A stretch of 24,457 bases of DNA from a virus (IMGVR_UViG_2534681674_000009), one strand, 5' to 3'. Counted from the first letter of the stretch, positions 1 to 24,302 are shown. Numbers and translations: made by a program. The notes: generated by a model from the letters alone, not told the origin.

Positions 1-1943
<1,943 letters not shown>

Positions 1944-1963
<20 letters not shown>

Positions 1964-3263: not shown

Positions 3264-3272
3264 GGGATGTTT

Positions 3273-3937: not shown

Positions 3938-4035
3938 TTGCTGGTTTTTACACTTAATCTTTTGATAATAAAGAATAAGTTTATCTGGTGCTTTCACTGA
4001 ATTTTCCTCGTTATCTGTGTGTTGCAATCATCTCT

Positions 4036-4055
4036 GTATTGCAGCTTGTATTGCT
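4036..4055 (+). repeat. Tandem GTATTGCAG / GTATTGC motifs (putative integrase arm-type sites, left arm)
   Basis: TGTATTGCAGCTTGTATTGC upstream of int; the same motif recurs in tandem at 16409-16432 near the right junction. Confidence 0.4.
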
Positions 4056-4231
4056 TTTTGGGGCTAAAAATGGCTGGCGAGAACAAACTGAGCGACAAAG
4101 CGCTTAAAGGATATCTGGGGAAACCCAGAGAAAAGCAGATCACCATTGCTGATGGAAAGGGGCTTTCTATTCGTGTGAGTACTAAAGGGTGAACCGCCCC
4201 GGGTTTCCTGGAGAGTATTTTATCTGTGAAC

Positions 4232-5122
4232 TCAGGCTGCCAGATCATTATTTCCGATGGAAGCATAATAAGCTTTTTCTGCTTCTGCCGGAGGAATATG
4301 GCCCAGCCTTTCCAGCAATCGTCGATTGTTATACCAGTCCACCCACGTTAGTGTGGCCAGTTCCACTTCTGTCCGGTTTTTCCAGCTATTACGGTGTATT
4401 ACCTCCGCTTTGTAAAGACCATTGATGCTCTCAGCCATCGCGTTGTCATACGAGTCGCCAGTACTCCCTGTTGATGCCAGTAATCCGGCTTCCTTAAGCC
4501 GCTGCGTGTAGGCCAGCGATACATACTGAGAACCTTTATCACTGTGATGGATTGTGCCGGACGGCCGACGGGCCCACAACGCCTGCTCCAGTGCATCCAG
4601 CACGAATGTTGTTTCCATGGATGATGAGACCTGCCATCCCACGATGTATCCGGCGAACACATCAATGATGAACGCCACATAAACGAAGCCCTGCCATGTG
4701 CTTACCCAGGTAAAATCAGCCACCCACAACTGGTCTGGACGTTCTGCCACGAACTGACGGTTTACGCGGTCGCATGCGGCAACGGCTTTCCGGCTGACGG
4801 TAGTGCGGACCTTTTTACCCCGGAGAACACCGGCAAGTCCCATAACTGCCATGAGACGTGCCACAGTGCATCTGGCCACTCTGATACCTTCCCGTAACAA
4901 CTGACGCCAGACTTTACGCACACCGTATACCTGGTGATTTTCATCGTATACGCGCTGTATCTCTTTCTTCAGCCAGTCATCGTGCTGCGCACGGGCACTG
5001 CGTTTATCCGGATGATGTCGCTGTTGCTGACAATGGTAATACGTTGACGGGGCAATATGCAGTTCGCTGCATACCGGTCCGACCCCGTACTGCTCACGCA
5101 GCTTATCCAGCAGTGGCATCAT
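4232..5122 (-). CDS. IS629-like transposase OrfB (DDE catalytic domain; normally made as OrfAB by frameshifting)
   Basis: [53 protein letters not shown]...[22 protein letters not shown]... matches recalled IS629/IS1203 OrfB. Confidence 0.9.
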
Positions 5123-5446
5123 TTTTCCAGAGGCGGTCGAACTCCGCCTTCGCAAAATAAGCGGAAGCCTGGCGAAGGATATCGTTACTGCGGCGCAGTT
5201 CACGATTTTCACGTTCCAGCTCTTTCAGACGCTGACGTTCAGCGCTGGTGAGCCCACCATCACCGCCCCCGGTATCCCGCTCATGCTGGCGAACCCAGAC
5301 ACGCAGAGTCTCCGGCGTACAGCCAATCTTTGGGGCAATGGAACTACGATTGCCGCCCACTGTGAGTCATATTCATCCTGACTTTCCAGAACCATACGAA
5401 TCGCCCGCTGACGGACTTCGGGGGAAAAACGAGTATTTTTAGTCAT
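5103..5446 (-). pseudogene. IS629-like OrfA, apparently frameshifted
   Basis: N-terminal [33 protein letters not shown] is in one frame (5225-5446) and the remainder [30 protein letters not shown]...[10 protein letters not shown] in another (5103-5360); junction near 5345-5350. Confidence 0.55.
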
Positions 5447-6620
5447 CCTGTTTACCTCTTTCTCAGGGAGTTTAGTCTCCAGGATTTCCGGGGCGGTTCA
5501 GGGGCTGTGAGCTTTGTTTTCTTCTACAGGTTAGCAGGTGGCCGGGCTGCTCCGGTCTGGCTAACGTTGGGTAAATATCCTGATATGTCACTCAAACAGG
5601 CAAGGGAAAAGCGCGACGAGTGCCGTGGTTGGTTGGCTGACAAACGTGATCCGCGTATCCAGATTAAGATTCAGGCTGAAGAACGCTTAAAGCCGGTTAC
5701 AGTGGAGGATGCACTAAATTACTGGTATGAAAATTACTGTAAGGTGCGTCGTAAAACTCATGCTGTAACGCTTGGCAGATTTCGAAAGCATATCTTTCCC
5801 TATATCGGTCATTTGCCCGTAAATGACACTCACCTATATGAATGGCTGGACTGTTTTGACCGAATTAAACGTAATGCACCAGTTATGGCGGCGTATGTTT
5901 TTTCTGACACTAAATTAGCTCTTCGTTTTTGTCGGGTACGCCAGTACGCGACGTGTGATGCTTTAAAGGATTTGCGCATGAGTGATGTGGGGCAGATTGC
6001 AGGTAAGCGGGATCGGGTTCTGGATGAAGCCGAACTCGGCCAGCTCTGGAAGGCAATTTTTGTCGAGCCTGATTTAAAACTAATGTCTGAATACACGCGA
6101 AAAATGTTTGTGCTTTGTACAGTATTTGGATGTCGAATGAGTGAAGCCCGATTATCAGAATGGAGCGAATGGAATCTCGAAAGTTGGGTTTGGACTGTAC
6201 CAAAAGATCACTCAAAAACTGGTGTTGAAATCGTCAGACCAGTACCTGAAATTCTACGACAGTGGGTAACGGATGTTCACGAAGAGACAAAACATACTGG
6301 TTATGTGCTGGGAAGTCTGCGAATTAGAGAAAGCGTAAGCAAGATTGGGGGGAAAATCGGTAAACGTTTGGGCCATGAAAAACAATGGTCACTACACGAC
6401 CTTAGAAGAACGCTATCTACTCATCTAAGTGATCTCGGTGTTGAATTTTATGTAGTAGAACAACTGTTAGGCCATGCGCTACCTGGCGTGGCAGGTGTTT
6501 ACAACCGGAGTAAGTTTATGGCTAAAAAACTGGATGCTCTGGAACTCTGGACTACATATCTCAATAGCATCGCAGGTGCTGATTCAAAAGTGACAATCCT
6601 CAAACAAAAGGTTGGTTAAC

Positions 6621-6848
6621 ATGAAAAAAATGGCAATTGTTGATAAAAAGGGTCTGGAGTACATTCCTAACATTGACCGAATGATCCGTGAGAAAGAATG
6701 TCGGGAGCTAACCACTCTTGCGAACAGCACACGCTGGAAGCTGGAGAAGGAAGGAAAATTTCCTAAGCGGATCAAGATTGGTTCCACTGCTGTTGCATAT
6801 CGTCTTTCAGAAGTGCAGGCATGGATTCGAGGTGAGTGGGTAGTTTAA
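6621..6848 (+). CDS. alpA: AlpA-like DNA-binding protein (putative excision/regulatory factor)
   Basis: Small basic ORF directly downstream of int with an HTH-like segment ECRELTTLANSTRWKLEKEGKFPKRIKIGSTAVAYRLSEVQAWI, typical of AlpA/Xis-like proteins next to P4-type integrases; ATG 6621 preferred over TTG 6612. Confidence 0.75.
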   Translation: MKKMAIVDKKGLEYIPNIDRMIREKECRELTTLANSTRWKLEKEGKFPKRIKIGSTAVAYRLSEVQAWIRGEWVV

Positions 6849-6874
6849 ATTATCTCAGAATAAAATATTATGAA

Positions 6875-6908
6875 TTACTGATTTGAGAATTTGTACTCAA
6901 ATCAGTAA
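6875..6908. terminator. Bidirectional hairpin between convergent genes
   Basis: Perfect 13-bp inverted repeat TTACTGATTTGAG ... CTCAAATCAGTAA with 8-nt loop, in an AT-rich spacer between the alpA-like (+) and membrane protein (-) genes. Confidence 0.55.
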
Positions 6909-6917
6909 TAACATTCT

Positions 6918-7454
6918 TTATAAGAGATTAAATCCAAATAAAGAGTAATCATATACCGGGGTGCATTGCATCCCACTGAATATGCTGATGTTTTTTTCTG
7001 TTTCTATCCTTTTTTCAATAAGTTGTTGTATATTTTTACAGTACAATTTGTGTGTGATGTTATTATCGTAAGCCTGATATAGCAACGTCAATGTTGATGC
7101 TATGAAACATGCAGAAAGAAAATGAACTAGTACATGTGAGCGTTTTTTGGTTGTCCATGATGCATTCGCTTGTGAAATATAAATCATTCTGAGAATGATA
7201 ATGATGATAGACAGTAACAGACCACTCAATAAAATAAGTATTGGGTTTGCGTATTTAATTAATGGTTGAGAGCAAAAAACTATTATAGCTCCTGTGACTG
7301 CGTATGAGAAAAAGGAGTAATTAAACTTCTTACTCCTTCTCTCAAGTATTTTAATTTCATCTTGTGTGGGGGTTTTAGATGCCTCTAATATAAGTTTATT
7401 AAATGTTTCTGTTATCTTGTTTTTTGTGTTTGTGGCTATTTTTTTTAGATTCAT
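6918..7454 (-). CDS. Hypothetical membrane protein (AT-rich accessory gene)
   Basis: 178-aa ORF with hydrophobic segments (YSFFSYAVTGAIIVFCSQPL, ILILLSGLLLSIIIIILRMIYI, VLVHFLSACFIASTLTLLY); base composition much more AT-rich than neighbours; no recognisable family. Confidence 0.55.
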   Translation of the reverse strand: MNLKKIATNTKNKITETFNKLILEASKTPTQDEIKILERRSKKFNYSFFSYAVTGAIIVFCSQPLIKYANPILILLSGLLLSIIIIILRMIYISQANASWTTKKRSHVLVHFLSACFIASTLTLLYQAYDNNITHKLYCKNIQQLIEKRIETEKNISIFSGMQCTPVYDYSLFGFNLL

Positions 7455-7804
7455 AGCATTCTAACTCCCTTAACTTATTTATTACTTTCTCTTTATGATA
7501 AGAGAGGGGAATGACTTGGTAAAGTGATTTGTCATTAATAATGATAATCCTTGCGATAAATATTTCTGCAAGTTATTTACCTGTTTGTTGCTATCTTGTT
7601 AAGCGTTGGGTGTGGTTTATGTTTGGAGCGACTTTATTTAATCGTGATTTTATGGATTTATATTTATATCCTGTAAGATAAGCGCATGTTAGTTCAGGAG
7701 TAGTGTCAGATAAAATTATTCGGAGTAGAACTACCTTTTCTGTTTATTGCCAGTATTTACATAGCAATGCGCCGTAGTTACTCACATCACGGCGCTGATA
7801 CTAA

Positions 7805-8110
7805 TTATTCAGATTCTTTGGCTTTACGCCGCTGGAGTTCTTCACGAGCGACGGCTACGAGTTGCCCGATTTCCTCCGCTGCCTTGATGCCGATTTGTTC
7901 GACCTTAGCTAAGGCATCCAGTGAAGACACGAGGGGATTTTCTCCGCTTCCTTCTGCCTGGCGGCGGGCGATTTCACCGCGCATGGCGGTTACGATAAAT
8001 CCGGCATTGCTTTCACCGTCCAGCTTAACGGATTCCATCCCTTGCATAACATCTAGTGGGACTCTGACAGTTGTCAGTTGTGATTTTGCGTTTTTGTTAG
8101 CCGTTGCCAT
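7805..8110 (-). CDS. Hypothetical protein, possible regulator (divergent from downstream operon)
   Basis: 101-aa ORF; sits head-to-head with the 8301+ operon across an intergenic region containing repeated operator-like half-sites. Confidence 0.5.
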   Translation of the reverse strand: MATANKNAKSQLTTVRVPLDVMQGMESVKLDGESNAGFIVTAMRGEIARRQAEGSGENPLVSSLDALAKVEQIGIKAAEEIGQLVAVAREELQRRKAKESE

Positions 8111-8300
8111 TTCTGAAACTCCTAATCATCGGTGTGTTTCAGTATACACAAAAAAAGAAATACAAAAAGCCTTGACGTGTGTTTCATGCGCTCATAACAT
8201 GAAACACACCGAAAGGATTGTTGAAATACAAAGAGCAACGCCCCGCAGTGCTGGGAACACATACGGGGCGTCTAACCAACAACGTAAACTAGGAGCCGTT
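8111..8300. promoter_or_regulatory. Divergent promoter/operator region
   Basis: TTGACG (8172-8177) then 17 bp then TAACAT (8195-8200); three copies of GTGTTTCA half-site (8133-8140 and 8179-8186 direct, 8200-8207 inverted), the latter two forming a palindrome over the -10; also inverted repeat GACGCCCCG...CGGGGCGTC at 8239-8273. Confidence 0.45.
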
Positions 8301-8498
8301 ATGGTTGCTGTAAATCATATACCACACCTTGTACACACACAAACGGCCTTTGTGTGGCGTTTTCTGGCACTGAGTGCCGGAGAATCTCAAATCATCCACG
8401 TAACCGCCTGGACGGAACGCGAAGCGCGTAGCCGTTGCCCGTCCGGTTGTGTTGCTGTATTCGCTGCAAAAATCCGCCAGGGAGTGAGTCATGCTTAA
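8301..8498 (+). CDS. Small hypothetical protein (possibly Icd-like)
   Basis: ATG at 8301 preceded by AGGAG (8291-8295); 65 aa MVAVNHIPHLVHTQTAFVWRFLALSAGESQIIHVTAWTEREARSRCPSGCVAVFAAKIRQGVSHA; family assignment is a weak recollection only. Confidence 0.45.
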   Translation: MVAVNHIPHLVHTQTAFVWRFLALSAGESQIIHVTAWTEREARSRCPSGCVAVFAAKIRQGVSHA

Positions 8499-8676
8499 AA
8501 CCTTCCGTGTATTTGCCCGAGCTGTTAACCCAATAGGCCACACAATTGGTATCGCTCAGAATGTGAAGGCTGTTAATGTTCAGACGGCTATTGCTGCGGT
8601 GAGAAGCGAATCATCAGAATATGGCTTATCACAAGTCATTATTTCAGCAGTGTATGAATTAAAAGAGGTGCATTAA
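8491..8676 (+). CDS. Small hypothetical protein
   Basis: 61-aa ORF whose start overlaps the preceding stop (translational coupling). Confidence 0.4.
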   Translation: MLKTFRVFARAVNPIGHTIGIAQNVKAVNVQTAIAAVRSESSEYGLSQVIISAVYELKEVH

Positions 8677-8834
8677 TGCAGGAAATCACATTACACGAAG
8701 CCGCTGAACGTGCGCACCAGACAGAAATTATTGCCGCCTTCTTGAGGTATACCCGAACAAAATTACAGATGCTGATATATCCGCACTGGCGAGCCTACTG
8801 GCGCGTCTTTCGGGAAGTGTCGCTAGTTTTTTGA
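8676..8834 (+). CDS. Small hypothetical protein (52 aa)
   Basis: ATG at 8676 overlapping the previous stop (TAATG), preceded by a strong RBS AGAGGTG (8664-8670); below the ORF-track length cutoff. Confidence 0.4.
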   Translation: MQEITLHEAAERAHQTEIIAAFLRYTRTKLQMLIYPHWRAYWRVFREVSLVF

Positions 8835-8866
8835 TTGAGGAAGAAAGTAAGCTGGTGGGGGATTAA

Positions 8867-9088
8867 ATGAATACAGAACGGGAAGTCTTTTTTAAATTGT
8901 TAGCATGTGCAGAAAGTTCATTAACTTTAAATAATTCAGCAAAAGCAATATTAAATATGTGGCTTGATTGCATAAATGACAATGAAGATGCAAATATTGC
9001 TTATGGCCTGTTGTCACTTATTGATGAAGCAGCAGAAAAACTCAATGACGCAATAAATAGTGCCCTGCTATCAAATAAGTCGAGTTAA
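8867..9088 (+). CDS. Small hypothetical protein (AT-rich)
   Basis: 73-aa ORF with GGGGGA RBS upstream; no recognisable family. Confidence 0.4.
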   Translation: MNTEREVFFKLLACAESSLTLNNSAKAILNMWLDCINDNEDANIAYGLLSLIDEAAEKLNDAINSALLSNKSS

Positions 9089-9105
9089 GTCGAGGAATAA
9101 ATAAT

Positions 9106-9405
9106 ATGGAAATGAAAAATTCTGGCTTTATTGCCAGCGGCCCCGCTCGGCCTGAATTTATGAACGGCGATATTTACCGCGATAAATACGGCGGCACGGT
9201 AACGATTAAAGGCGTGGCAGAACGGCGCATCACTTACCGTCGTGAGGGGTATAGCTATGACTGCGTGATGCCTGTTTATCAGTTCCGGCGTGATTTTTCC
9301 CTGGTATATGCCGCACCCCGCAGTAAGCCCATCAGCAGGGAAAAAGCGCGGGGAAACATCCAGAAAATGAAAAGCATGATTAACGCATTCAGGGGCAAAA
9401 AATGA
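9106..9405 (+). CDS. Hypothetical protein upstream of primase
   Basis: 99-aa ORF with GAGGA RBS; stop overlaps the primase start (ATGA). Confidence 0.5.
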   Translation: MEMKNSGFIASGPARPEFMNGDIYRDKYGGTVTIKGVAERRITYRREGYSYDCVMPVYQFRRDFSLVYAAPRSKPISREKARGNIQKMKSMINAFRGKK

Positions 9406-11153
9406 AACTGGCACCGAACTTAAAAAAACAGCCACGCGACAGACTGACAGAGATAATCATCTTTGCAGGTAGTGATGCGTGGAGCCATGCGAAAGAGTGG
9501 CAGGAATGGGCGGGTAAACATATTGCCGCCGACGATGTGCCGCCTGTCGTGTTGGCTGATGAGCAACTGAAAAACATCACCGATTACCGGATCATTGATG
9601 AAGATCGTCAGTGTGTGCGTGTTTACCGCGCAGGACATATCACAGAGCACAGCATGACGCAGATTGTTACGTTACTGGCTGTGGCTGGAGTGAAGACCGT
9701 ACACGAATACGCGGGGATTACTGACACCAGCCCAGTGGATTTATCCGACCAGTTGCCGCGACTCAAAGAGGAATGCGAGCGTGGGGAAAGCCTGGTGCTT
9801 AATCTTCCGACGAAGCAAAAGGCGCAACTTTCACAGATGGCAGACAGTGAGCGCGCGCAGCTGCTTGCCGAGCGCTTTGATGGCGTTTGTGTGCATCCGG
9901 AAAGTGAAATCGTTCACGTATGGCGCGGCGGGGTATGGTGTCCGATCAGCACAATGGAGCTGAGCCGCGAAATGGTGGCGATCTATTCAGAGCACAGGGC
10001 CACTTTCAGCAAACGCGTGATCAATAACGCCGTTGAAGCGTTAAAAGTTATTGCCGAACCAATGGGCGAGCCGTCCGGCGATTTGCTGCCGTTCGCCAAT
10101 GGTGCGCTTGACCTGAAAACGGGGGAATTTTCCCCGCACACGCCGGAGAACTGGATCACCACGCACAACGGCATTGAGTACACGCCACCAGCACCAGGGG
10201 AGAACATCCGCGATAACGCGCCAAACTTTCATAAATGGCTTGAGCACGCAGCCGGAAAAGACCCGCGCAAGATGATGCGTATATGTGCCGCGCTGTACAT
10301 GATTATGGCGAACCGGTACGACTGGCAGATGTTCATTGAGGCCACCGGAGACGGGGGAAGCGGTAAGAGTACATTTACCCATATTGCCACCCTGCTTGCT
10401 GGCAAACAGAACACCGTAAGCGCAGAGATGACATCACTCGATGATGCAGGAGGGCGTGCGCAGGTTGTCGGGAGTCGTCTTATCGTCCTTGCCGATCAGC
10501 CGAAATATACGGGGGAAGGCACGGGCATCAAGAAAATCACGGGAGGCGATCCCGTTGAAATTAACCCGAAATATGAGAAGCGATTCACGACGATAATAAG
10601 GGCGGTGGTACTGGCAACCAATAACGACCCGATGATCTTTACCGAACGGGCCGGAGGTGTGTCACGCCGTCGGGTGATTTTCCGGTTCGACAACATTGTA
10701 AGGGAGGACGAAAAAGACAAGGAATTACCGGAAAAGATAGCGGCAGAAATCCCCGTAATTATCCGCCGCTTGCTGGCTAATTTTGCTGACCCTGAAAAGG
10801 CACGGGCTTTATTACTGGAACAGCGTGACGGTGATGAAGCTCTGGCAATAAAGCAGCAAACGGATCCGGTTGTTGAGCTTTGCGCGGCGCTGGAGTTTCT
10901 GGAGGAAGCTCGTGGGCTAATGATGGGCGGTGGTGGTGACACCGTGAAGTACACGACCAGAAACAGCCTTTACCGTGTCTATATGGCCTTCATGGCATAT
11001 ACAGGAAAGGGGAAATGTTTGAGCGTGAATGAGTTCGGAAAGGCTATGAGGTCAGCGGCGAAAGTTTACGGATATGAATATATTACGCGAAAAGTTAAGG
11101 GAGTCACGCAGACCAACGCAACGACTACTGATGATTGCGATGCGTTTTTATAA
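9402..11153 (+). CDS. Primase-helicase, D5 / P4-alpha C-terminal-like (SF3 NTPase)
   Basis: 583-aa ORF with Walker A GDGGSGKST and Walker B-like hydrophobic run ending in D (RLIVLADQ); architecture resembles satellite/P4 replication initiators; immediately followed by iterons. Confidence 0.8.
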   Translation: MKLAPNLKKQPRDRLTEIIIFAGSDAWSHAKEWQEWAGKHIAADDVPPVVLADEQLKNITDYRIIDEDRQCVRVYRAGHITEHSMTQIVTLLAVAGVKTVHEYAGITDTSPVDLSDQLPRLKEECERGESLVLNLPTKQKAQLSQMADSERAQLLAERFDGVCVHPESEIVHVWRGGVWCPISTMELSREMVAIYSEHRATFSKRVINNAVEALKVIAEPMGEPSGDLLPFANGALDLKTGEFSPHTPENWITTHNGIEYTPPAPGENIRDNAPNFHKWLEHAAGKDPRKMMRICAALYMIMANRYDWQMFIEATGDGGSGKSTFTHIATLLAGKQNTVSAEMTSLDDAGGRAQVVGSRLIVLADQPKYTGEGTGIKKITGGDPVEINPKYEKRFTTIIRAVVLATNNDPMIFTERAGGVSRRRVIFRFDNIVREDEKDKELPEKIAAEIPVIIRRLLANFADPEKARALLLEQRDGDEALAIKQQTDPVVELCAALEFLEEARGLMMGGGGDTVKYTTRNSLYRVYMAFMAYTGKGKCLSVNEFGKAMRSAAKVYGYEYITRKVKGVTQTNATTTDDCDAFL

Positions 11154-11164
11154 AAAATGGCAAT

Positions 11165-11400
11165 GGTTATCTACCTTGTCTACCTGACTGAAATAAAATA
11201 CTTTTATTTCAATGTATTAATGCAGGTAGATAACTATTTTTCACTGTCTACCTGTTATCTACCTTATCTACCCATTTTTGTAGACAGGTAAGGAGACGGG
11301 TAGAGATGAGGTAGACAGCTATTTGGGGCTGTCTACCTCCCTGAAACCCGCGCCATTACTGGCCTGATAACTAATCAGGTAGACAAGGTAGACAAGGTGG
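11165..11400. repeat. Iteron cluster (putative origin of replication)
   Basis: At least ten copies of (T/G)TCTACC / GGTAGAC in both orientations (e.g. 11168-11185, 11247-11273, 11280-11318, 11331-11337, 11377-11397) around an AT-rich block (11190-11222), directly downstream of the primase gene. Confidence 0.7.
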
Positions 11401-11442
11401 TGGTGCACAAAAAACTTTTTAAACGAGGGGGTAAAAATAAAA

Positions 11443-11685
11443 ATGCACACATCAGGAAAACTGAACAAACATATAAAGCCACATTACCGCGCCCTTGATA
11501 TGGCTGAACACTGGCTAAGGGTGGCGATTAAGGCAATAGACCGCAACGCCGGGGAAGGATACGCGAAAGCACATCCCGAACTGATAAGCGCATTCATGAC
11601 AACGGCGGCTGCAAACTTTGCCACGCTGACCGAACGGGAGATTGCCGAAGCGGAGGAAGTGACAACCATCAATATTAAGTCCTGA
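11443..11685 (+). CDS. Hypothetical protein
   Basis: 80-aa ORF with GAGGGGG RBS upstream. Confidence 0.45.
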   Translation: MHTSGKLNKHIKPHYRALDMAEHWLRVAIKAIDRNAGEGYAKAHPELISAFMTTAAANFATLTEREIAEAEEVTTINIKS

Positions 11686-11696
11686 GAGCAGGCAGC

Positions 11697-12146
11697 ATGA
11701 CGGCGCAAATAGCAGCTTACGGGCGGCTGGTGGACGACCCACAGGTAAAACATACCAGCAAGGGAACACCCATGACACTGGCACGGATGGCGGTATCTTT
11801 GCCATGCAGCCAGGCAGATGACGGAACGGCGACGATGTGGTTATCTGTGCTGGCGTTTGGCAGACAAGCCGACACGCTGGCAAAGCATCACAAAGGCGAA
11901 CTCCTGAGCGTGGCGGGTAATATGCAGGTGAGCCAGTGGACTGGACAGAACGGTGAAACGCGGCAGGGCTGGCAGGTTATCGCAGACAGCGTAATCAGTG
12001 CGCGAACGGTGCGACCGGGCGGCAAAAAAGATCAACAGGGTCAGGCTACTGACGCACTGAACAGAGCAAAACAACAGGCAGATCAGCAAGGAAGCCATCC
12101 ACCAGTGGGAGATAATGAGCAATGGGGAGATGATATTCCGTTTTAA
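11697..12146 (+). CDS. ssb: Single-stranded DNA-binding protein
   Basis: 149 aa with OB-fold-like N-terminal part, Gly/Gln-rich linker and acidic C-terminal tip ending DDIPF, the hallmark SSB tail. Confidence 0.8.
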   Translation: MTAQIAAYGRLVDDPQVKHTSKGTPMTLARMAVSLPCSQADDGTATMWLSVLAFGRQADTLAKHHKGELLSVAGNMQVSQWTGQNGETRQGWQVIADSVISARTVRPGGKKDQQGQATDALNRAKQQADQQGSHPPVGDNEQWGDDIPF

Positions 12147-12163
12147 ATATTGCCAATAAAAAA

Positions 12164-12190
12164 GGCCGGAAAAAAAAATAAATTTTCCGG
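12164..12190. terminator. Hairpin after ssb (possible terminator)
   Basis: CCGGAAAA ... TTTTCCGG stem with A-rich loop; A/T-rich on both sides. Confidence 0.35.
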
Positions 12191-12365
12191 CATGCTACAT
12201 AAATCCAGACCAAAGGGAGTGAAGATATTAACACTAATTATCCGTGCTGAAGTTGTCATCCCAAAACTTTATACAACATTGCACTCGGTTGCATGTATTC
12301 GCATGACAAATATCGGTGATAGCATATATCCACAATTATTTTTAATGAATGCAAAGAGGATGCGT

Positions 12366-13406
12366 ATGGTTGATTTATATTCGCCTACCCAGCTTGTACA
12401 GGTGGTTAATGCTGTAGATGTACAAAAACAACTAAATGCGTTGTTTACCAGTTTGTTTTTTACTCGCTCGGTAATGTTTGAATCGCGCGATATTATTCTT
12501 GATACAATCGACGATCCAAATATCCCAATTGCAGCGTTTTGTTCTCCTATGGTGGGTAGTAAAGTTTCACGTGACGAAGGGTACGAATCAAAAACAATTC
12601 GTCCAGGCTATATGAAGCCGAAAAGCAGCATTGATCCAAATAAGTTAGCTGTGCGCCCTGCTGGTGTATCACCTGAGCAATACAATGCTTTTGGAGCGCG
12701 TAATATTAAAGTTAAACAGGCGATTGTAAATCAGGCTAAAGCTATTCGTGCACGTATTGAATGGCTTGCCGTTCAGGCAATCACAACGGGGAAAAATATC
12801 ATTGAGGGCGATGGTATTGAACGTTATGAGCTGGACTGGAATATTAAACCACAAAATATCATCACTCAGTCTGGCGGTGCTGAGTGGTCAGGTAAGGATA
12901 AAGAAACTTTTGATCCAAATGATGATATTGAGAGCTACGCAGAATTTAGTGAGGGCGTCACTAATATCATCATTATGGGCGGTAATGTATGGAAGAAATA
13001 CCGTTCATTCAGAGCGATAAAAGAGGCTCTGGATACCCGTCGTGGTTCTAATTCCGAACTGGAAACGGCCCTTAAAGACCTTGGTGATTCGGTGAGTTTT
13101 AAAGGGTATATGGGCGATGTTGCGATTGTTGTATACAGCGGGCGTTATACCGACGAGGACGGAACTGAAAAACATTTCCTTGATCCTGATTTGATGGTGC
13201 TTGGCAATACGGCTCTTCAGGGGATTGTCGCCTATGGCGGTATTCAGGATCCGGAGCTAATCCGAATGGGGCTGACTAAAGCCGAACTTGCACCGAAAAA
13301 CTATATTGTGCCTGGTGATCCGGCTATTGAATATGTGCAGACACATTCAGCACCACAGCCAATACCGGCCCGCATCAATCGTTTTGTTACCGTTCGCATT
13401 GGCTAA
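12366..13406 (+). CDS. Major capsid protein, lambda gpE homologue encoded by the element
   Basis: Start at ATG 12366 (RBS AAGAGG 12354-12359). Product aligns along its length with lambda E, e.g. ITQSGGAEWSGKDKETFDPNDDIESYA...RRGSNSELETALKDLGDSVSFKGYMGDVAIVVYSG vs lambda ITQSGGTEWSKRDKSTYDPTDDIEAYA...RRGSNSELETAVKDLGKAVSYKGMYGDVAIVVYSG; clearly a diverged paralogue, not a duplicate. Confidence 0.85.
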   Translation: MVDLYSPTQLVQVVNAVDVQKQLNALFTSLFFTRSVMFESRDIILDTIDDPNIPIAAFCSPMVGSKVSRDEGYESKTIRPGYMKPKSSIDPNKLAVRPAGVSPEQYNAFGARNIKVKQAIVNQAKAIRARIEWLAVQAITTGKNIIEGDGIERYELDWNIKPQNIITQSGGAEWSGKDKETFDPNDDIESYAEFSEGVTNIIIMGGNVWKKYRSFRAIKEALDTRRGSNSELETALKDLGDSVSFKGYMGDVAIVVYSGRYTDEDGTEKHFLDPDLMVLGNTALQGIVAYGGIQDPELIRMGLTKAELAPKNYIVPGDPAIEYVQTHSAPQPIPARINRFVTVRIG

Positions 13407-13415
13407 GGGGGAGCA

Positions 13416-13757
13416 ATGGCTACTCATTACACTGAACTCATGTCTGGCACTGAAGCACTGGTTACTACGCTGGGGATATTTTCAGCCAATAAAGGGGTAA
13501 TACCTGCGTTTACGCCACTGATGCAGGAAGATGCAACTGGTGCGCTAGTGGTATGGGATGGAACGAGCGCAGGCAAAGCGGTTTATGTTTCCGCTGTACA
13601 AATCGACACAGCGAAAAAAACACAGGCACAGGTTTATAAGACAGGTGTTTTAAATGTTGATGCTCTGAACTGGCCTGAGTCTGTAAGAGAACTGTCGGCA
13701 AAGGTTGCCGCGTTTGTTGGCTCAGGTATTTCTGTTCAGCCGCTGGCTCGTGTGTAA
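13416..13757 (+). CDS. Head decoration protein, lambda gpD homologue encoded by the element
   Basis: 113 aa; ...LVVWDGTSAGKAVYVSAVQ...YKTGVLNVDALNWPE...AAFVGSGISV parallels lambda D ...[19 protein letters not shown]...[15 protein letters not shown]...[11 protein letters not shown]; RBS AAGGGGGA. Confidence 0.8.
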   Translation: MATHYTELMSGTEALVTTLGIFSANKGVIPAFTPLMQEDATGALVVWDGTSAGKAVYVSAVQIDTAKKTQAQVYKTGVLNVDALNWPESVRELSAKVAAFVGSGISVQPLARV

Positions 13758-13768
13758 AGGGGGATACA

Positions 13769-14152
13769 ATGCAGAATGATTACAATGACCTTAAGCCAAT
13801 TGCCGAAATGATGTACCCGAATCCAGCTGTAGAGGAATTAAAAGCTATCGCTGACAAAATGTGTTTAAGCGAGCGCCTTGTTGATATGAATCAGGTGATG
13901 GAAATTACAACCCTGAGTCGGCGTACACTGCTAAACCTTGAGGCTAGTGGAGAGTTCCCGGAGCGTGTGCAGGTTACGGAAGGGCGTAAGGCCTGGTATT
14001 TAAGTGAAGTGATCGACTGGATAAATAATATTCCTCGCGCTTCTGAATATTGCCGCGTACCTGTCCCAAAAAAGCCAGATGCGGCGCTATGCCTCAAGAT
14101 TGAGCGTGTACGCCGCAATGCACGGGATGGTCGCTATAAGCTGATTGGTTGA
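13769..14152 (+). CDS. Second AlpA-like HTH protein
   Basis: 127 aa; segment MNQVMEITTLSRRTLLNLEASGEFPERVQVTEGRKAWYLSEVIDWINN resembles AlpA/MerR-type HTH; RBS AAGGGGGA. Confidence 0.6.
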   Translation: MQNDYNDLKPIAEMMYPNPAVEELKAIADKMCLSERLVDMNQVMEITTLSRRTLLNLEASGEFPERVQVTEGRKAWYLSEVIDWINNIPRASEYCRVPVPKKPDAALCLKIERVRRNARDGRYKLIG

Positions 14153-14194
14153 TGAAATTAGGGCCCGCTCTGGCTGGCGGGTCCTTTCCGGCGA

Positions 14195-14340
14195 TCTGAC
14201 AGGCTACGGGGCGTCAGGCGCGCGGGTTTTCTCTATTTATGAGCATTTTAAGGGGACTGGTGGTGGTTTTGTTGTTCGCTATATCTGTATGAATAATAAG
14301 AGAAAAATACAATCAATACACCAACCTGAAACAGTAATTA
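14195..14340 (+). other. cos site (cosN plus cosB-like region) of the element
   Basis: GACAGGCTACGGGGCGTCAGGCGCGCGGGTTTTCTCTATTTATGAGCATTTT closely parallels recalled lambda cos GACAGGTTACGGGGCGGCGACCTCGCGGGTTTTCGCTATTTATGAAAATTTT; lies directly upstream of a Nu1-like gene as in lambda. Confidence 0.65.
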
Positions 14341-14353
14341 AGTTGTGGTATCA

Positions 14354-14896
14354 ATGAAATTACACCTGATGAACAAAAAAAACATGGCAAAAAGTTGCCG
14401 TGTAAGCGCCACTGCGTTCGATAAGTGGGGAGTGATTCCCGTCGAGCGTAAGGGCCGTGAGGCGTTCTATGATGTTGCCAGTGTAATAGATAATCGGGTT
14501 AACAATGCAATCAGCCAGATTACAAACGAAACGGGCGATATTGATGACGATGAACTTTTACGCGTCAGGATCAGATTACTGACAGCACAGGCAGAGGCGC
14601 AGGAGCTTAAAAACGAGCGCGAACGCGGCGACGTTATTGATACAGAGTTTTGTATGTATGTTCTTTCCAAACTGGCGAGTCAGATTTCATCTATCATGGA
14701 CAGCCTGCCGCTTACCATGCAAAGGCGCTTCCCACAGATGACTCCGGCTATGCTGGATGGACTTAAAAAGGAAGTGGCTAAAGCCTGTAATGCCAGTGCC
14801 GGCGTTGCTGACAACCTCCCACAGATACTGGCTGATTATCTGATGGAAAGTACAGGAAACGTACCGGATAAGTTGCAGCTGAATAAGGATAAGTAA
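14354..14896 (+). CDS. Terminase small subunit, lambda Nu1-like
   Basis: ...RLLTAQAEAQELKNERERGDVIDTEFCMYVLSKLASQISSIMDSLPLTMQRRFP matches lambda Nu1 ...RLTRAQADAQELKNARDSAEVVETAFCTFVLSRIAGEIASILDGLPLSVQRRFP; start codon uncertain (ATG 14354, 14369 or 14384). Confidence 0.8.
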   Translation: MKLHLMNKKNMAKSCRVSATAFDKWGVIPVERKGREAFYDVASVIDNRVNNAISQITNETGDIDDDELLRVRIRLLTAQAEAQELKNERERGDVIDTEFCMYVLSKLASQISSIMDSLPLTMQRRFPQMTPAMLDGLKKEVAKACNASAGVADNLPQILADYLMESTGNVPDKLQLNKDK

Positions 14897-14907
14897 CGTA
14901 GTACGCT

Positions 14908-15183
14908 ATGACTGAATCCGAACTACTGAAAGTAATCTGCTATGCTGGTGGAGTCAGCCACCAGCATGACGAACAGGCCACGCAGCCGGGCAGTGTCACC
15001 GCTGAAAATTACGCTCGTGTGGTTGCTGAGGTTATGTGGCGTGACGGTATAGAACTGAACGGACAGGATTGCTTAGTCATCCGCACCAAAGTGCTGGCTA
15101 TACTGGCAGCTAGGCGGAGGCAGGGACAACGCCAGAACGTTGCATCGTACCAGTGGAAGAAGCCTGACAGACTGCGGCGATAA
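14908..15183 (+). CDS. Hypothetical protein downstream of terS
   Basis: 91-aa ORF; no recognisable family; weak RBS. Confidence 0.35.
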   Translation: MTESELLKVICYAGGVSHQHDEQATQPGSVTAENYARVVAEVMWRDGIELNGQDCLVIRTKVLAILAARRRQGQRQNVASYQWKKPDRLRR

Positions 15184-15337
15184 CTCTTTGATTTTCTCGA
15201 CGGCCCCAAAATGGGCCTTACCATAGCCAGCTAATAAATGAGCAAGCCTCAAAAGTGAGGTTTGTGGCCGTTTGGCCTATTCATATGCTAACTCGTTGAT
15301 ATTCCTGACGACGCAAATTTACGCCTTGTGGCTGGTA

Positions 15338-15363
15338 GTCGAATTGCAAATTTGCAACTCGAC
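15338..15363. promoter_or_regulatory. 26-bp near-perfect palindrome (putative operator)
   Basis: GTCGAATTGCAAATTTGCAACTCGAC, self-complementary except one position pair; intergenic between the terS module and the Abi-like gene. Confidence 0.35.
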
Positions 15364-15585
15364 TATGAAACTACAGGTAGTTTGGGTAGTAAAAGCAACA
15401 CACTGATTTTGGGGCTTCTTCGCGATACCTAATATTATGGTATCGGTGGAAGAGATATCGTTTCTCATAGGTTAGCACCGAGGGCGGAGTTCCGCCCTCA
15501 TCGAAAAATTGCTTACGAGTCGTCAAAATAAATTAATCGACTGAGTATAATGATTAACTAATTGCTCGTGTTACTTCATTATACG

Positions 15586-16347
15586 TTATTTCCCATCTTT
15601 AAGGTTTAACCAAGTGTTAATTAAAAAAAGAGCCATTGAGCCTGATAAATTTACTGCAAGTTCGGCATGCCTTGGGGATGGCTTAATTGATGAGCTGTTC
15701 GTTCCATGTGCATCACCGAGTTTATTACGAAGAGTACCTAACCCATTTACAACTGCAGAACAACCGCCGAGAATTTGTTTGAAGATATTTTCAGTATGTT
15801 GGTCGGCAGATAGGTTAAGTTCTTTTGAAAGAGTTTTATAAAGCTCTGACATTTCAATATTTTTATTATTATACTGAATGCCCATATCATCAAGAATGTG
15901 TTTGCAAACTGTTTCAAGAAGTGTTCTTGCGGAGGTTATCGCACCATCCGGATCTGTATGGCGCCGTTCAAGTGCTTTTATCCAAACGGCGTGGACTCCA
16001 TCCTCGTTAAACTTTCTTAATACATCAGATATGTCTTCATCCGCTGGAGCTTTATTTTTCCCTTCTAGATAGTCCAGCATCGGCTGAAATGCCTTATAAA
16101 TCAAATCTCTCCGGGGGGCATACTTTTCAGTCTTTTTTATAAATCCCCAAAATTCTTTTAGTGAGCGATTAGTTCTCACAAACTCTGGTAATAGCTGATG
16201 TAAAGGAGGATTTTGTAAGAAATATGTTCTTAGAAGCAAATAATCATTATTAGCTTCATCCTGGGCTCCTGTAGCTCTTGCAATTAGTATGTTTTGAAGC
16301 GCTACTGCGCGCTCTAGGTCATTTTGAAGGGTATCTATAATATTCAT
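15586..16347 (-). CDS. Abi-like protein with HEPN-type Rx4-6H motif (putative abortive-infection / defence effector)
   Basis: 253-aa ORF on the opposite strand at the element's right end; C-terminal LGTLRNKLGDAHG contains R-x6-H as in HEPN/Abi_C family proteins. Confidence 0.55.
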   Translation of the reverse strand: MNIIDTLQNDLERAVALQNILIARATGAQDEANNDYLLLRTYFLQNPPLHQLLPEFVRTNRSLKEFWGFIKKTEKYAPRRDLIYKAFQPMLDYLEGKNKAPADEDISDVLRKFNEDGVHAVWIKALERRHTDPDGAITSARTLLETVCKHILDDMGIQYNNKNIEMSELYKTLSKELNLSADQHTENIFKQILGGCSAVVNGLGTLRNKLGDAHGTNSSSIKPSPRHAELAVNLSGSMALFLINTWLNLKDGK

Positions 16348-16408
16348 AACAAATCTTTATTCACTTCATTTGTGGGTTGATAATTGAATGGTTTGTACAT
16401 TGATTTCT

Positions 16409-16432
16409 GTGTATTGCAGTGTGTATTGCAGC
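16409..16432 (+). repeat. Tandem GTGTATTGCAG repeats (putative integrase arm-type sites, right arm)
   Basis: GTGTATTGCAGTGTGTATTGCAGC, same motif as at 4036-4055. Confidence 0.4.
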
Positions 16433-16506
16433 ATAGCCATTCAGGTAAAGATTATGCTCTATTTTTCCTCTTATATCATTCACATACTTACACCATTGAC
16501 TCATGT

Positions 16507-16516
16507 AGCCGAAGCA
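16507..16516 (+). repeat. Right junction direct repeat (putative attR core) AGCCGAAGCA
   Basis: Identical to 3897-3906; downstream sequence TGAGGTGAATCCGCAGATGACC continues lambda E. Confidence 0.65.
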
Positions 16517-17297
16517 TGAGGTGAATCCGCAGATGACCCTGCGTCGCCTGCCGGATGAAGATCCGCAGAATCTGGCGGACCCGGCTTACCGCCGCCGTCG
16601 CATCATCATGCAGAACATGCGTGACGAAGAGCTGGCCATTGCCCAGGTCGAAGAGATGCAGGCAGTTTCTGCCGTGCTTAAGGGCAAATACACCATGACC
16701 GGTGAAGCCTTTGATCCGGTTGAGGTGGATATGGGCCGCAGTGCGGCAAACAACATCACACAGTCCGGTGGCACGGAGTGGAGCAAGCGTGACAAGTCCA
16801 CGTATGACCCGACCGACGATATCGAAGCCTACGCGCTGAACGCCAGCGGCGTGGTGAATATCATCGTGTTTGATCCGAAAGGATGGGCGCTGTTCCGTTC
16901 CTTCAAAGCCGTCAGGGATAAGCTGGATACCCGTCGCGGCTCTCATTCCGAGCTGGAGACAGCGGTAAAAGACCTGGGCAAAGCGGTGTCTTATAAGGGA
17001 ATGTATGGCGATGTGGCCATCGTCGTGTATTCCGGACAGTACGTGGAAAACGGCGTCAAAAAGAACTTCCTGCCGGACAACACGATGGTGCTGGGGAACA
17101 CTCAGGCACGCGGTCTGCGTACCTATGGCTGTATTCAGGATGCGGACGCACAGCGCGAAGGCATTAACGCCTCTGCCCGTTACCCGAAAAACTGGGTGAC
17201 TACCGGCGATCCGGCGCGAGAGTTCACCATGATTCAGTCAGCACCGCTGATGCTGCTGGCTGACCCTGATGAGTTCGTGTCCGTACAACTGGCGTAA
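16507..17297 (+). pseudogene. E: Major capsid protein gpE, C-terminal fragment (codons ~80-341)
   Basis: (PKH)EVNPQMTLRRLPDEDPQNLADPAYRRRRIIMQNMRDEELAIAQVEEMQAV...EFTMIQSAPLMLLADPDEFVSVQLA, near-identical to lambda E from residue ~83; no in-frame ATG, upstream in-frame TAG at 16506-16508. Confidence 0.9.
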
Positions 17298-18113: not shown

Positions 18114-18647
18114 ATGGCGATAAAAGGGCTTGATCAGGCGATTGAAAATCTGAGCCGGGTTCGTAAAAACGCCATTCCGGCGGCTTCAGCAATGGCCATT
18201 AACCGCGTGGCCACAACGGCGATTAATCAGTCTTCATCACAGGTTGCCCGGGAGACAAAGGTACGCCGGAAACTGGTAAAGGAACGGTCCAGACTGAAAC
18301 GGGCCACGGTCAGAAATCCGAATGCCAGAATTATCGTTAAACGCGGTGATCTCCCTGTGATTAAGCTGGGGATCAGGATGCTGGGCCGTCGTCCGGACAG
18401 CATACTTAAAGCTGGTCAGCATCGGTATCAGCGGGCATTTATCCAGCGATTAAAAAATGGTCGCTGGCATGTCATGCAGCGTGTGGCCGGGAAAAACCGT
18501 TACCCCATTGATGTGGTGAAAATCCCGATGGCGGCCCCACTGAAACAGGCGTTTGATGAGAATATTGACCGTATCCGGCGTGAACGTCTGCCCGGAGAAC
18601 TGGCATACGCGCTGAAACAACAACTTAGGATTGCGATAAAACGATGA
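18114..18647 (+). CDS. Z: Tail completion protein gpZ
   Basis: MAIKGLDQAIENLSRVRKNAIPAASAMAINRVA... and C-terminus ...KNGRWHVMQRVAGKNRYPIDVVKIPMA... match lambda Z. Confidence 0.93.
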   Translation: MAIKGLDQAIENLSRVRKNAIPAASAMAINRVATTAINQSSSQVARETKVRRKLVKERSRLKRATVRNPNARIIVKRGDLPVIKLGIRMLGRRPDSILKAGQHRYQRAFIQRLKNGRWHVMQRVAGKNRYPIDVVKIPMAAPLKQAFDENIDRIRRERLPGELAYALKQQLRIAIKR

Positions 18648-19039
18648 AACATACTGATATCCGTGCGGCAGTGCTGGATGCACTGGAGCTGCATGAACAC
18701 GGGGCGACGCTGTTTGATGGTCGCCCCGTTGTTTTTGACGAAGAGGATTTTCCGGCCGTCGCGGTTTATCTGACGGATGCAGAGTATACCGGTGAAGAGC
18801 TGGATGCAGATACCTGGCAGGCGGAGCTGCATATTGAAGTTTTCCTGCCTGCTCAGGTGCCGGATTCAGAGCTGGATGCGTGGATGGAGTCCCGGATTTA
18901 TCCGGTGATGAGCGATATCCCGGCACTGGCAGGACTGATTACCACGATGGTTACGCAGGGCTATGAGTATCGTCGTGATGACGATATGGCGTTATGGAGT
19001 TCTGCAGATCTGACTTATTCCATTACATACGAGATGTGA
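18644..19039 (+). CDS. U: Tail terminator gpU
   Basis: [95 protein letters not shown]..., near-identical to lambda U. Confidence 0.95.
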
Positions 19040-19046
19040 GGACGAT

Positions 19047-19799
19047 ATGGCAACACCAAATCCCCTTGAGCCGGTAAAAGGTGCCGGTACCACTCTGTGG
19101 GTTTACAACGGCAAGGGTGATGCTTATGCAAACCCGTTGTCAGACGATGACTGGCAGCGACTGGCTAAGGTGAAGGATCTGATGCCGGGCGAGATGACGG
19201 CAGAACCCTACGATGATAACTACCTGGATGATGAAGACGCGGACTGGACCGCGACCGGGCAGGGGCAGAAGTCTGCAGGAGATACCAGTTTTACGCTGGC
19301 CTGGAAACCGGGAGAAGAAGGTCAGAAAGGGCTTATAGGCTGGTTTGAAAGCGGGGATGTGCGGGCCTATAAAATCCGTTTCCCAAATGGCACGGTGGAT
19401 GTGTTCCGTGGCTGGGTCAGCAGTATCGGTAAGGCCGTGACGGCGAAAGAAGTGATCACCCGCACGGTGAAAGTCACTAACGTGGGCAAACCTTCCGTGG
19501 CGGAAGAACGCAGCGAAATTACGCCGGCCACTGCAATTAAGGTGACACCGACATCCGGTACGGTGGCAAAAGGGAAAACAACCACCCTGACGGTTTCTTT
19601 TGAGCCGGAAAGTGCAACCGACAAGACGTTCAGAGCGGTTTCCGCCGATCCGTCGAAAGCCACCATTAGTGTGAAAGATATGACAATTACGGTAAACGGC
19701 GTGGCGACAGGTAAGGTGCAGATCCCTGTGGTGAGCGGAAATGGTCAGTTCGCCGCAGTGGCTGAAGTCACCGTTACTGAAGCGGGCGCTGCAGGGTAA
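19047..19799 (+). CDS. V: Major tail protein gpV
   Basis: 250 aa; ...[10 protein letters not shown]...[18 protein letters not shown]...[36 protein letters not shown]... matches lambda V, including the C-terminal Ig-like region. Confidence 0.95.
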
Positions 19800-19812
19800 A
19801 CGGAGGTAATAC

Positions 19813-20235
19813 ATGTTTCTGAAAACAGAACAATTTGAATATAACGGTGTGTCCGTCACGCTTTCCGAATTGTCTGCGCTGCAGCGGTTTGATTATATAA
19901 AGTTTGTTTCAGACGCAGAACAACAGGAGACAACGAAGCATTATGTCGTGCACATTAACCAGCGATATCTGGAAACGGCATCCCTGCTTGTGGCGATGTC
20001 GCTATGGCATTCCCATTCCCTCAAAGGCACTCTGGCCTCTCCGGAGACAGAGATGCAGCAGATCCGCCGTGAAGTGATGCTGGGATGGCCTGCTGATGCA
20101 CTGAATCAGGCAACGAACCGGGTGCTTTATCTTTCAGGTATGCTGGATAACCGGCACGATGCCGATCCTGAACAAACCGGGAAAGCAGAAGCGACTGAGC
20201 CGGTAACATCAAAAAAGCATTCGAAGGCGAGCTGA
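19813..20235 (+). CDS. G: Tail assembly chaperone gpG
   Basis: MFLKTEQFEYNGVSVTLSELSALQR...LVAMSLWH..., lambda G-like, 140 aa. Confidence 0.93.
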   Translation: MFLKTEQFEYNGVSVTLSELSALQRFDYIKFVSDAEQQETTKHYVVHINQRYLETASLLVAMSLWHSHSLKGTLASPETEMQQIRREVMLGWPADALNQATNRVLYLSGMLDNRHDADPEQTGKAEATEPVTSKKHSKAS

Positions 20236-20675
20236 ACTTTGTCCTGAAACTGGCGCGAGAGATGGGGAGACCCGACTGGCGCGCCATGCTTGCCGGGATG
20301 ACATCCACCGAATATGCCGACTGGCGACGTTTTTACTGCACGCATTATTTTCAGGATACCCAACTGGACGCTCATTTTTCCGGGCTGATGTACGCCGTAC
20401 TCAGCCTGTTTTTTGGCGATCCGGATATGCATCCGGCGGATTTCAGTCTGCTTGCTCCAGCGTGTGAGGAAGAGCAGACGGAGATGCCGGACGAGGAAGA
20501 AATGCTGATGCAGAAAGCGACAGGAGTTGCCGGAGGCGTCCGGTTCGGAGGGGACGGAGGGCGCGATATTTCACCTTCTGCGGATGTGGTGGATGTCAGC
20601 GAGGATGATGTTGCATTAATGATGGCTTCAGCGGGGATTTCCGGAGGTGTGAGATATGTCCCAGCCAGCGGGTGA
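19813..20675 (+). CDS. G-T: Tail assembly chaperone gpG-T fusion (programmed -1 frameshift near 20211-20217)
   Basis: The -1 frame is open from 20199 to 20675 and encodes a T-like sequence (...RPDWRAMLAGMTSTEYADWRRFY...GGVRYVP...); the only G/T-frame overlap (20199-20232) contains heptamer A AAA AAG in the G frame. Confidence 0.75.
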
Positions 20676-24292: not shown

Positions 24293-24302
24293 ATCCTGTT
24301 TT

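Follow-up and report, generated by a model that had tools for sequence, protein, structure and literature searches.

A satellite in the capsid gene E of a lambda-like prophage very probably belongs to a published family of helper-embedded phage-inducible chromosomal islands

The viral sequence IMGVR_UViG_2534681674_000009 (24,457 nucleotides, here called the window) is made up of the head-tail region of a lambda-like prophage, into which a segment of lower GC content breaks. This segment, an island of 12.6 kb at 3897-16506 (about 11.3 kb without the insertion sequence, IS, that it carries), lies in E, the gene for the prophage's major capsid protein, and encodes, within 12366-14896, a gpE-like capsid protein, a gpD-like decoration protein, a cos site and a Nu1-like small terminase (TerS). 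We consider it very probable that the island belongs to a published family of helper-embedded phage-inducible chromosomal islands (HE-PICIs), that of E:Phage_cap_E:80, or 11capE, and we make this judgement jointly for the assignment and for our explanation of the region as a whole. Packaging is probably redirected through the island's own TerS and cosB, as the sequences of these two elements suggest, while the capsid and decoration proteins may serve as alternative or redundant shell subunits in heads of normal size.

Insertion in gene E and family assignment

The island is bounded by the two parts of the interrupted helper gene, by a short attachment (att) repeat and, inside it, by doubled arm motifs:

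3662-3906, plus strand: 5' fragment of helper gene E, codons 1 to about 82, whose translation matches lambda-type gpE
3897-3906, plus strand: attL identity block AGCCGAAGCA, 10 bp
4033-4055, plus strand: doubled TGTATTGC attP arm motif, copies at 4035 and 4047, about 132 bp from the core
16408-16430, plus strand: doubled TGTATTGC attP arm motif, copies at 16410 and 16422, about 81 bp from the core
16507-16516, plus strand: attR identity block AGCCGAAGCA, 10 bp
16507-17297, plus strand: 3' part of helper gene E, which joins the 5' fragment to give an intact E

Gene E is interrupted after codon 82 of gpE, between ...GYVKPKH and EVNPQ..., and excising 3897-16506 in silico restored a gpE of 341 amino acids (aa) reading ...GYVKPKH-EVNPQMT... 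at the junction. When the whole window was scanned, the direct repeat AGCCGAAGCA was found at 3897 and 16507 only. Both the att block (agccgaagca in many members) and the text of attL are the same as in the E_Phage_cap_E_80 entries of the supplement to Tommasini, Mageeney and Williams 2023 (NAR Genom Bioinform, PMC10111431), who described Eco567.11capE in E. coli NRG857c and mapped 201 elements at the E site under the name E:Phage_cap_E:80. These authors also reported a doubled HE-PICI motif, tgTGTATTGCantgTGTATTGCa, whose two occurrences flank the attP centre, 81 +/- 2 bp upstream of it and 132 +/- 2 bp away on the downstream side (PMC10111431), and the doubled motifs of the island agree with the published values in sequence and in spacing.

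Protein and DNA identities point to the same family. All 346 positions of the capsid protein agree with its counterpart in the prototype 11capE of NRG857c, as do all 127 of a helix-turn-helix (HTH) protein encoded behind the decoration gene, and the decoration proteins agree at 107 of 113 positions. Across the int-alpA region the DNA shares 97-98% identity with 11capE and with the island of STEC711, which places the integrase in the HE-PICI clade by identity, with no tree involved; STEC711 has its island embedded in the same way, there with an integrase that is intact. At least 80% of window positions 12150-15300 were present in 234 of the 5426 complete E. coli genomes, and part of the module in 1317.

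The layout is that of a Gram-negative PICI. Taking the features of Fillol-Salom 2018 and the SatelliteFinder core set as the yardstick (a size of about 10-15 kb, without lysis, tail, portal or large terminase (TerL) genes), we found an inward integrase, AlpA beside int, a primase, a capsid-like gene and terS downstream, and a small size. The genes follow the canonical order of int, alpA, variable zone, primase, single-strand DNA-binding protein (SSB) and late zone, with int, alpA and primase on the same strand as helper E. Within the late zone, the gpE-like and gpD-like genes are followed by the AlpA-like HTH gene, cos, the Nu1-like terS, a conserved gene of 91 aa and then defence cargo.

The capsid, decoration and terminase genes

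The main features of the late module, with their strongest family matches, are as follows:

12366-13406, plus strand: satellite gpE-family major capsid protein, 346 aa (Pfam Phage_cap_E, 1.4e-41; phrog_29, 3e-89)
13416-13757, plus strand: satellite gpD-family head decoration protein, 113 aa (Pfam HDPD, 4.6e-15; phrog_49, 2e-26)
14177-14249, plus strand: cosQ-side flank and cosN of helper type, 63 of 73 bases matching the lambda-type helper cos (E 4e-20)
14209-14220, plus strand: cohesive-end 12-mer GGGCGTCAGGCG, within cosN
14250-14344, plus strand: PICI-type cosB, the predicted TerS-binding region, unrelated to lambda cosB and conserved with the TerS-type PICIs L004 and L005
14345-14896, plus strand: Nu1-family small terminase, full length, 183 aa (Pfam Phage_Nu1, 1.1e-24; phrog_57, 3e-53)

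Over its full length, the island capsid protein shares 41% identity with the helper gpE as reconstructed (2e-83). In the PDB it matched 3BQW (2.6e-121) and lambda gpE, 7VI9 (2.3e-76). The former, whose deposited title is 'Putative capsid protein of prophage', is 351 residues long, as is c1499, the capsid protein of the island EcCICFT073; 3BQW is presumably c1499 itself. The decoration protein is 39% identical to helper gpD and matched 1TD0 (3e-16) and lambda gpD, 7VII (1.6e-12). Judged from their sequences, the capsid and decoration genes are functional and under strong purifying selection: the ratio of nonsynonymous to synonymous substitution rates (dN/dS) was 0.06-0.09 for the capsid gene and 0.06-0.12 for the decoration gene, with 0.06-0.21 for terS. 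Among 50,697 phage records there was no phage capsid protein more than 42% identical to that of the island, a result that places the capsid protein, and on sequence grounds the capsid/decoration pair, in a satellite lineage.

When helper A, W, B, C, FI, FII, Z, U, V, G, T, H, M and L served as tblastn queries against the island, TerL, W, portal, protease, FI/FII and the tail genes proved to have no homologue there; the hits were to the D-like and Nu1-like genes only, gene E having been left out of the queries because the island's E-like gene was the object of study. Pfam and PHROG scans of the main open reading frames (ORFs) of the island brought up no further structural proteins, and no scaffold or size-determining gene was identified by these scans or by tblastn with helper genes.

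Much of an initial annotation of the window, made from its sequence alone, is confirmed by these results. Its gpE-, gpD- and Nu1-like genes and cos within 12366-14896 were borne out by Pfam, PHROG, PDB and comparison with the helper proteins, including significant profile and structure matches of the capsid and decoration genes to Phage_cap_E, HDPD, lambda gpE 7VI9 and gpD 7VII. It had placed the satellite inside helper E, which the 341-aa gpE restored by excising 3897-16506 upholds, and it had described portal, protease, TerL and tail genes as missing, in agreement with the tblastn, Pfam and PHROG searches. It was also right, in our judgement, that portal, protease/scaffold, TerL and tails must come from a lambdoid helper, since the island has none of those genes. 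Its proposal that packaging is redirected through the island's TerS and cos probably holds too.

The cos site and the terS cassette

The cos site sits directly upstream of terS, as in lambda. STEC711 and IMG/VR relatives stood in for the helper's cos, Nu1 and A, which the window does not cover. The cohesive end GGGCGTCAGGCG differs from that of lambda, GGGCGGCGACCT, at five positions, and the same variant was found in 11capE and in three IMG/VR prophage contigs; a third variant, GGGCGGAAGGCG, occurs in the induced coliphage PhiR46_1 (L021, about 3533-3544). The exact 22-mer around GGGCGTCAGGCG is present at phage cos sites in the IMG/VR sequences L006 (1260-1281), L015 and L017, directly upstream of Nu1 and A proteins whose identity to lambda-type ones is 99-100%. 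On account of its occurrence at genuine phage cos sites, we rejected the possibility that GGGCGTCAGGCG is a defect or a mismatch to the helper. Among lambda-like phages the cohesive end varies naturally, and the differences between these variants concentrate in the right half of cosN.

The island TerS shares 34% identity with lambda-type Nu1 over residues 9-169, more strongly in the C-terminal half, and the alignment with Nu1 reaches residue 180; its RefSeq relatives begin at the ATG at 14354. Its closest phage match among the 50,697 records was N15 gp1 at 47%, with none higher. We also considered whether the protein might be an Rpp, which was ruled out by its length of 183 aa, the full-length alignment with Nu1 and the lack of blastp similarity to RppA. 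A PDB search with the island TerS returned no match, yet the PDB should hold the published RppC structure. By definition, an Rpp has 144-153 aa, with a winged HTH and a C-terminal coiled-coil dimeriser, and is without the TerL-binding part of TerS; in lambda Nu1 it is the C-terminal half that binds TerL (Fillol-Salom 2019, PMC6739421).

Comparison with relatives shows where the cassette begins. The alignment with 11capE stops at 14249, just to the right of cosN (about 9630 in L022 on the 11capE side), where 11capE continues after the same cosN with a lambda-type cosB and a Nu1 remnant of 64 aa. The cosB and terS of the island are instead about 86% identical in DNA to those of the classical chromosomal PICIs of O157:H7 3-5-1 (L004) and of strain N1 (L005). 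Since the terS slot is filled by TerS here, by RppA in EcCICFT073 and by a truncated Nu1 in 11capE, we regard it as an exchangeable cassette. The position of the breakpoint exactly at cosN/cosB suggests that cos, or cutting by the terminase, is a hotspot for the exchange of packaging cassettes.

An ORF of 70 aa at 14145-14357 matched phrog_11159 (6e-46); because it overlaps cos, we treated it as probably not a gene, and phrog_11159 may be a family of ORFs called spuriously over the cos regions of PICIs.

Comparison with known satellites

The closest known element is 11capE, which occupies the same position in the lambda E cognate, co-oriented with it and with a 10-bp att block, and has the same spacing of doubled TGTATTGC motifs, the same cosN variant, identical capsid and HTH proteins and a near-identical decoration protein. 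The two differ in that 11capE has a lambda-type cosB and the 64-aa Nu1 remnant, being described as without terS (PMC10111431), whereas the island has a PICI-type cosB, a full-length TerS, the 91-aa gene and an integrase split by an IS. They also differ in the primase/variable zone and in cargo (HEPN/DUF262 in 11capE, AbiJ-like in the island). This local variation, consisting of the PICI-type cosB with a complete terS and the IS-split integrase, is modest.

EcCICFT073, the prototype Gram-negative cos PICI (PMC6092414, PMC6739421), likewise carries int, alpA, primase, SSB, the capsid gene c1499, the decoration gene c1500, one further gene, cos, a specificity gene and a gene of 93 aa, uses lambdoid helpers and combines a helper-type cosN with a private cosB. 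Its proteins are 55% (capsid), 54% (decoration) and 55% (91-aa against 93-aa protein) identical to those of the island. In contrast to the island it is chromosomal, lying between roxA and phoQ, and has two cos sites; its specificity protein is RppA (144 aa), which binds the helper TerS, whereas the island encodes a full Nu1 homologue that keeps the C-terminal half.

A second group, the TerS-type classical E. coli PICIs (O157:H7 3-5-1, N1, EcCIIHE3034 and EcCI18098), shares with the island the cosB-terS cassette (86% DNA identity) and the order of capsid, decoration, one gene, cos, terS and a small gene. Unlike the island, these elements occupy chromosomal sites and have a lambda-type cosN, capsid and decoration proteins of the c1499/c1500 type and a 137-aa protein in place of the HTH protein; neither their helper nor their mechanism has been reported. 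The L004 island is not EcCIEDL933, since the latter is the prototype of the capsid-forming PICIs (cf-PICIs) and L004 is a classical PICI at roxA/phoQ.

The cf-PICIs, represented by EcCIEDL933, resemble the island in having their own HK97-fold capsid gene and terS. Unlike it, they have genes for portal, protease, head-tail connectors, HNH and TerL as well, form small capsids and steal only tails, and membership of this class is ruled out by the missing portal, protease, head-tail connectors and TerL (tblastn, Pfam and PHROG). Pathogenicity islands of Staphylococcus aureus (SaPIs) that are of the pac type and have their own TerS resemble our model of the island in that a satellite TerS and the helper TerL redirect packaging, but they differ in headful pac packaging, Gram-positive hosts, a separate Ppi inhibitor and head-size redirection by CpmA/B, all of them features that the island lacks. 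As for P4-like satellites, no ORF of the island matched the capsid-size and regulatory families Sid, Psu and Delta in Pfam or PHROGs, and no P4-like C4/isrK immunity RNA reached the Rfam gathering score, the sole Rfam match being the IS pseudoknot.

These comparisons leave the gene set less unusual than the initial annotation had made it. Its view of the element as more than a cos-type PICI does not stand, as EcCICFT073 already has c1499 and c1500, and a capsid-like gene and terS belong to the five PICI core components of SatelliteFinder (PMC10085698); what it took for an unusual partial capsid module is the standard PICI late module. It could not tell from sequence whether the architecture had been described; this architecture, including insertion in E while carrying its own capsid gene, is already published as the HE-PICI 11capE family (PMC10111431). 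The IS in the integrase (4190-5499) had been overlooked.

A model of packaging and the role of the capsid/decoration pair

We propose that, after induction of the helper, the island TerS would use its diverged N-terminal winged-helix domain to bind the cosB of the island, while its better conserved C-terminal half would recruit helper gpA (TerL). The latter would cut the presumably shared cosN and package concatemers of the island into helper-built heads, to which helper tails would then be added. The capsid and decoration proteins would contribute alternative or redundant shell subunits on the helper portal and scaffold, in full-size heads, and in the embedded state they would make up for the interrupted E. 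The proposed TerS mode would correspond, among cos phages, to the TerS strategy of SaPIs and would be a sister of the Rpp strategy. The weakest step is the role as shell subunits in full-size heads, with no determination of a small capsid, which we put forward tentatively and hold to be somewhat short of an even chance.

Several points weigh against this model. The predicted binding of the island TerS to its own cosB and to gpA follows only from homology. Among its relatives, the TerS-encoding islands of IHE3034 and 18098 were not transferred from their native strains, and no helper was found for them in 2018 (PMC6092414). A positive role of the capsid/decoration pair is a conjecture, the data coming only from 55%-identical, dispensable homologues in a PICI that is not embedded.

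A different role for the pair, favoured by the initial annotation, would be to build the island's own capsid lattice on the helper portal, scaffold and protease, giving a smaller head sized for one island genome and excluding helper DNA. The pair would then be a true half capsid module, forming satellite-specific shells possibly of lower triangulation (T) number, and insertion in E would leave only satellite shell protein available until excision; were this so, it would be an intermediate between classical and capsid-forming PICIs. We consider both the small head and the half module improbable. The two genes are intact, paired, under strong purifying selection and of a satellite-specific lineage, insertion in E takes away the competing helper shell protein until excision, and a capsid homologue redirects head size in SaPIbov5 (Ccm), as has been proposed likewise for PmCI172. 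A T=3 lambda-like head holds roughly 13-14 kb, near the 11.3-12.6 kb of the island. On the other side, lambda packages roughly 38-51 kb, and about four IS-free copies of the island (some 45 kb) would fit a lambda head. As four copies fit a normal head and one fits a T=3 head, the arithmetic alone leaves the head size undecided. The island has no identified scaffold or size-determining gene. The cf-PICI paper, moreover, puts this E. coli PICI family in large capsids, probably with about three concatemeric copies. Of the relatives with the same pair, EcCICFT073 is the closest that has been tested; there, deletion of c1499 or c1500 left lambda interference and island transfer unchanged, and all packaged DNA was phage-sized (PMC6092414). 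This evidence, which comes from 55%-identical proteins of a non-embedded island, weighs against the earlier proposal of a small capsid with its own lattice, a proposal that has no support here.

The pair might alternatively be mainly a back-up for the interrupted E, supplying heads made from the composite before or without excision and having no part in interference or specificity, as proposed by Tommasini et al. (PMC10111431). At the position equivalent to att, the island capsid gene has AGCCGAAAAG rather than AGCCGAAGCA, so that it is not itself a target for integration, and with the integrase disrupted by the IS no intact E/D-type pair other than that of the island lies downstream of the break. 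However, the same pair is kept in the non-embedded PICIs EcCICFT073, L004 and L005, which interrupt nothing, and a back-up role therefore cannot be the general reason for keeping the genes. With 41% identity to helper E, the fit of the island protein with helper gpD, Nu3, B and C is also only conjectural, and we hold this explanation to be unlikely, though less so than a small head. Much further down the scale is passive capture of a functionally irrelevant, decaying piece of a lambdoid late operon, which we regard as very improbable. The late zones of PICIs are in flux and take up late genes from helpers (PMC10111431), and the terS slot is exchangeable (TerS, RppA, truncated Nu1). Against this, all three genes have a dN/dS far under 1 and intact reading frames, independent genomes carry identical or nearly identical capsid proteins, and no phage source above 42-47% identity turned up. 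Shell subunits in normal-sized heads, together with packaging specified by TerS and cosB, remain our preferred account.

Integrase, early and variable zone, cargo and helper

The remaining genes of the island, and the helper genes upstream of it, are:

362-1963: helper portal B
1809-3263: helper C
3267-3605: helper D
4070-4189, plus strand: first 40 codons of a tyrosine integrase, identical to the N-terminus of the intact STEC711 integrase
4190-5499, minus strand: IS3-family insertion sequence (rve/HTH_21 domains; ALIL pseudoknot, 115.7 bits)
5500-6619, plus strand: remainder of the integrase with arm-binding, SAM-like and catalytic domains (Pfam Phage_integrase, 1.5e-16; Arm-DNA-bind_3)
6612-6848, plus strand: AlpA regulator/excisionase (Pfam Phage_AlpA, 3.1e-15)
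9402-11153, plus strand: primase-replicase, D5_N / DUF5906 (Pfam D5_N, 2e-15; phrog_864, 6e-162)
11697-12146, plus strand: single-strand DNA-binding protein (Pfam SSB, 3.4e-15)
13769-14152, plus strand: second AlpA-like HTH protein, 127 aa (Pfam Phage_AlpA, 7.6e-9; phrog_2790, 1e-49; PDB 8C3T, 2e-9)
14908-15183, plus strand: conserved 91-aa PICI protein (phrog_1561, 1e-45), 55% identical to the 93-aa end protein of EcCICFT073
15586-16347, minus strand: AbiJ-like abortive-infection cargo (Pfam Abi_C, 1.3e-23; PADLOC AbiJ, 2.2e-21)

The IS splits the integrase after codon 40 and is bordered by a GGG(G) target duplication; the segment is missing at the same point in STEC711 and 11capE, and the attL/IS junction was not found in any complete E. 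coli genome of the collection searched. It is 95.7% identical to an IS3-family copy of CFT073; its orfA has gained 2 bp and the A-run of the frameshift site has lost 1 nt, because of which the IS itself may be defective. With its integrase split, this copy of the island probably cannot excise on its own unless integrase is supplied in trans, and it is probably locked in E, leaving helper E broken. We further speculate that, with two co-oriented cos sites in the composite, packaging begun at the cos of the island could proceed into the tail genes of the helper and past them.

Over window positions 5500-8097 the DNA identity with the islands of STEC711 and 11capE is 97-98%, whereas 8098-11489, comprising the variable zone and the primase, is unrelated to them in DNA (the primase proteins are about 43-47% identical). 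With both flanks of this zone 97-98% identical, the island is a mosaic. At 6918-7454, on the minus strand, a stretch of about 35% GC encodes a predicted membrane protein of 178 aa, conserved in both STEC711 and 11capE and assigned to no family, and a DUF4222 match was also found among the island ORFs in the Pfam/PHROG scan.

In the slot between the decoration gene and cos, classical PICIs hold an unrelated protein of 137 aa instead of the AlpA-like HTH protein; one RefSeq annotation calls it a head-tail connector, and it has no Pfam match. Beside attR, the AbiJ-like gene here and HEPN with DUF262 at the same place in 11capE mark this position as a hotspot for defence genes. A scan of the late zone for promoters and terminators gave no more sites than shuffled sequence.

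The window also contains the helper genes from E and FI through to L. Between the helper tail genes (18432-24448) and those of the STEC711 helper, DNA identity is only about 77-79%, compared with 97% for the head genes, from which it follows that this type of satellite occupies helpers with mosaic tails.

Significance

The analysis mainly classifies the region: the island is a textbook example of a published satellite family, and no new concept is required. It does draw attention to the capsid/decoration pair of E. coli PICIs, which is conserved and strongly selected, yet the only knock-outs of it had no phenotype. The clean swap of cassettes at cosN/cosB between 11capE and the island, in turn, amounts to a natural experiment on the exchange of packaging specificity among satellites.

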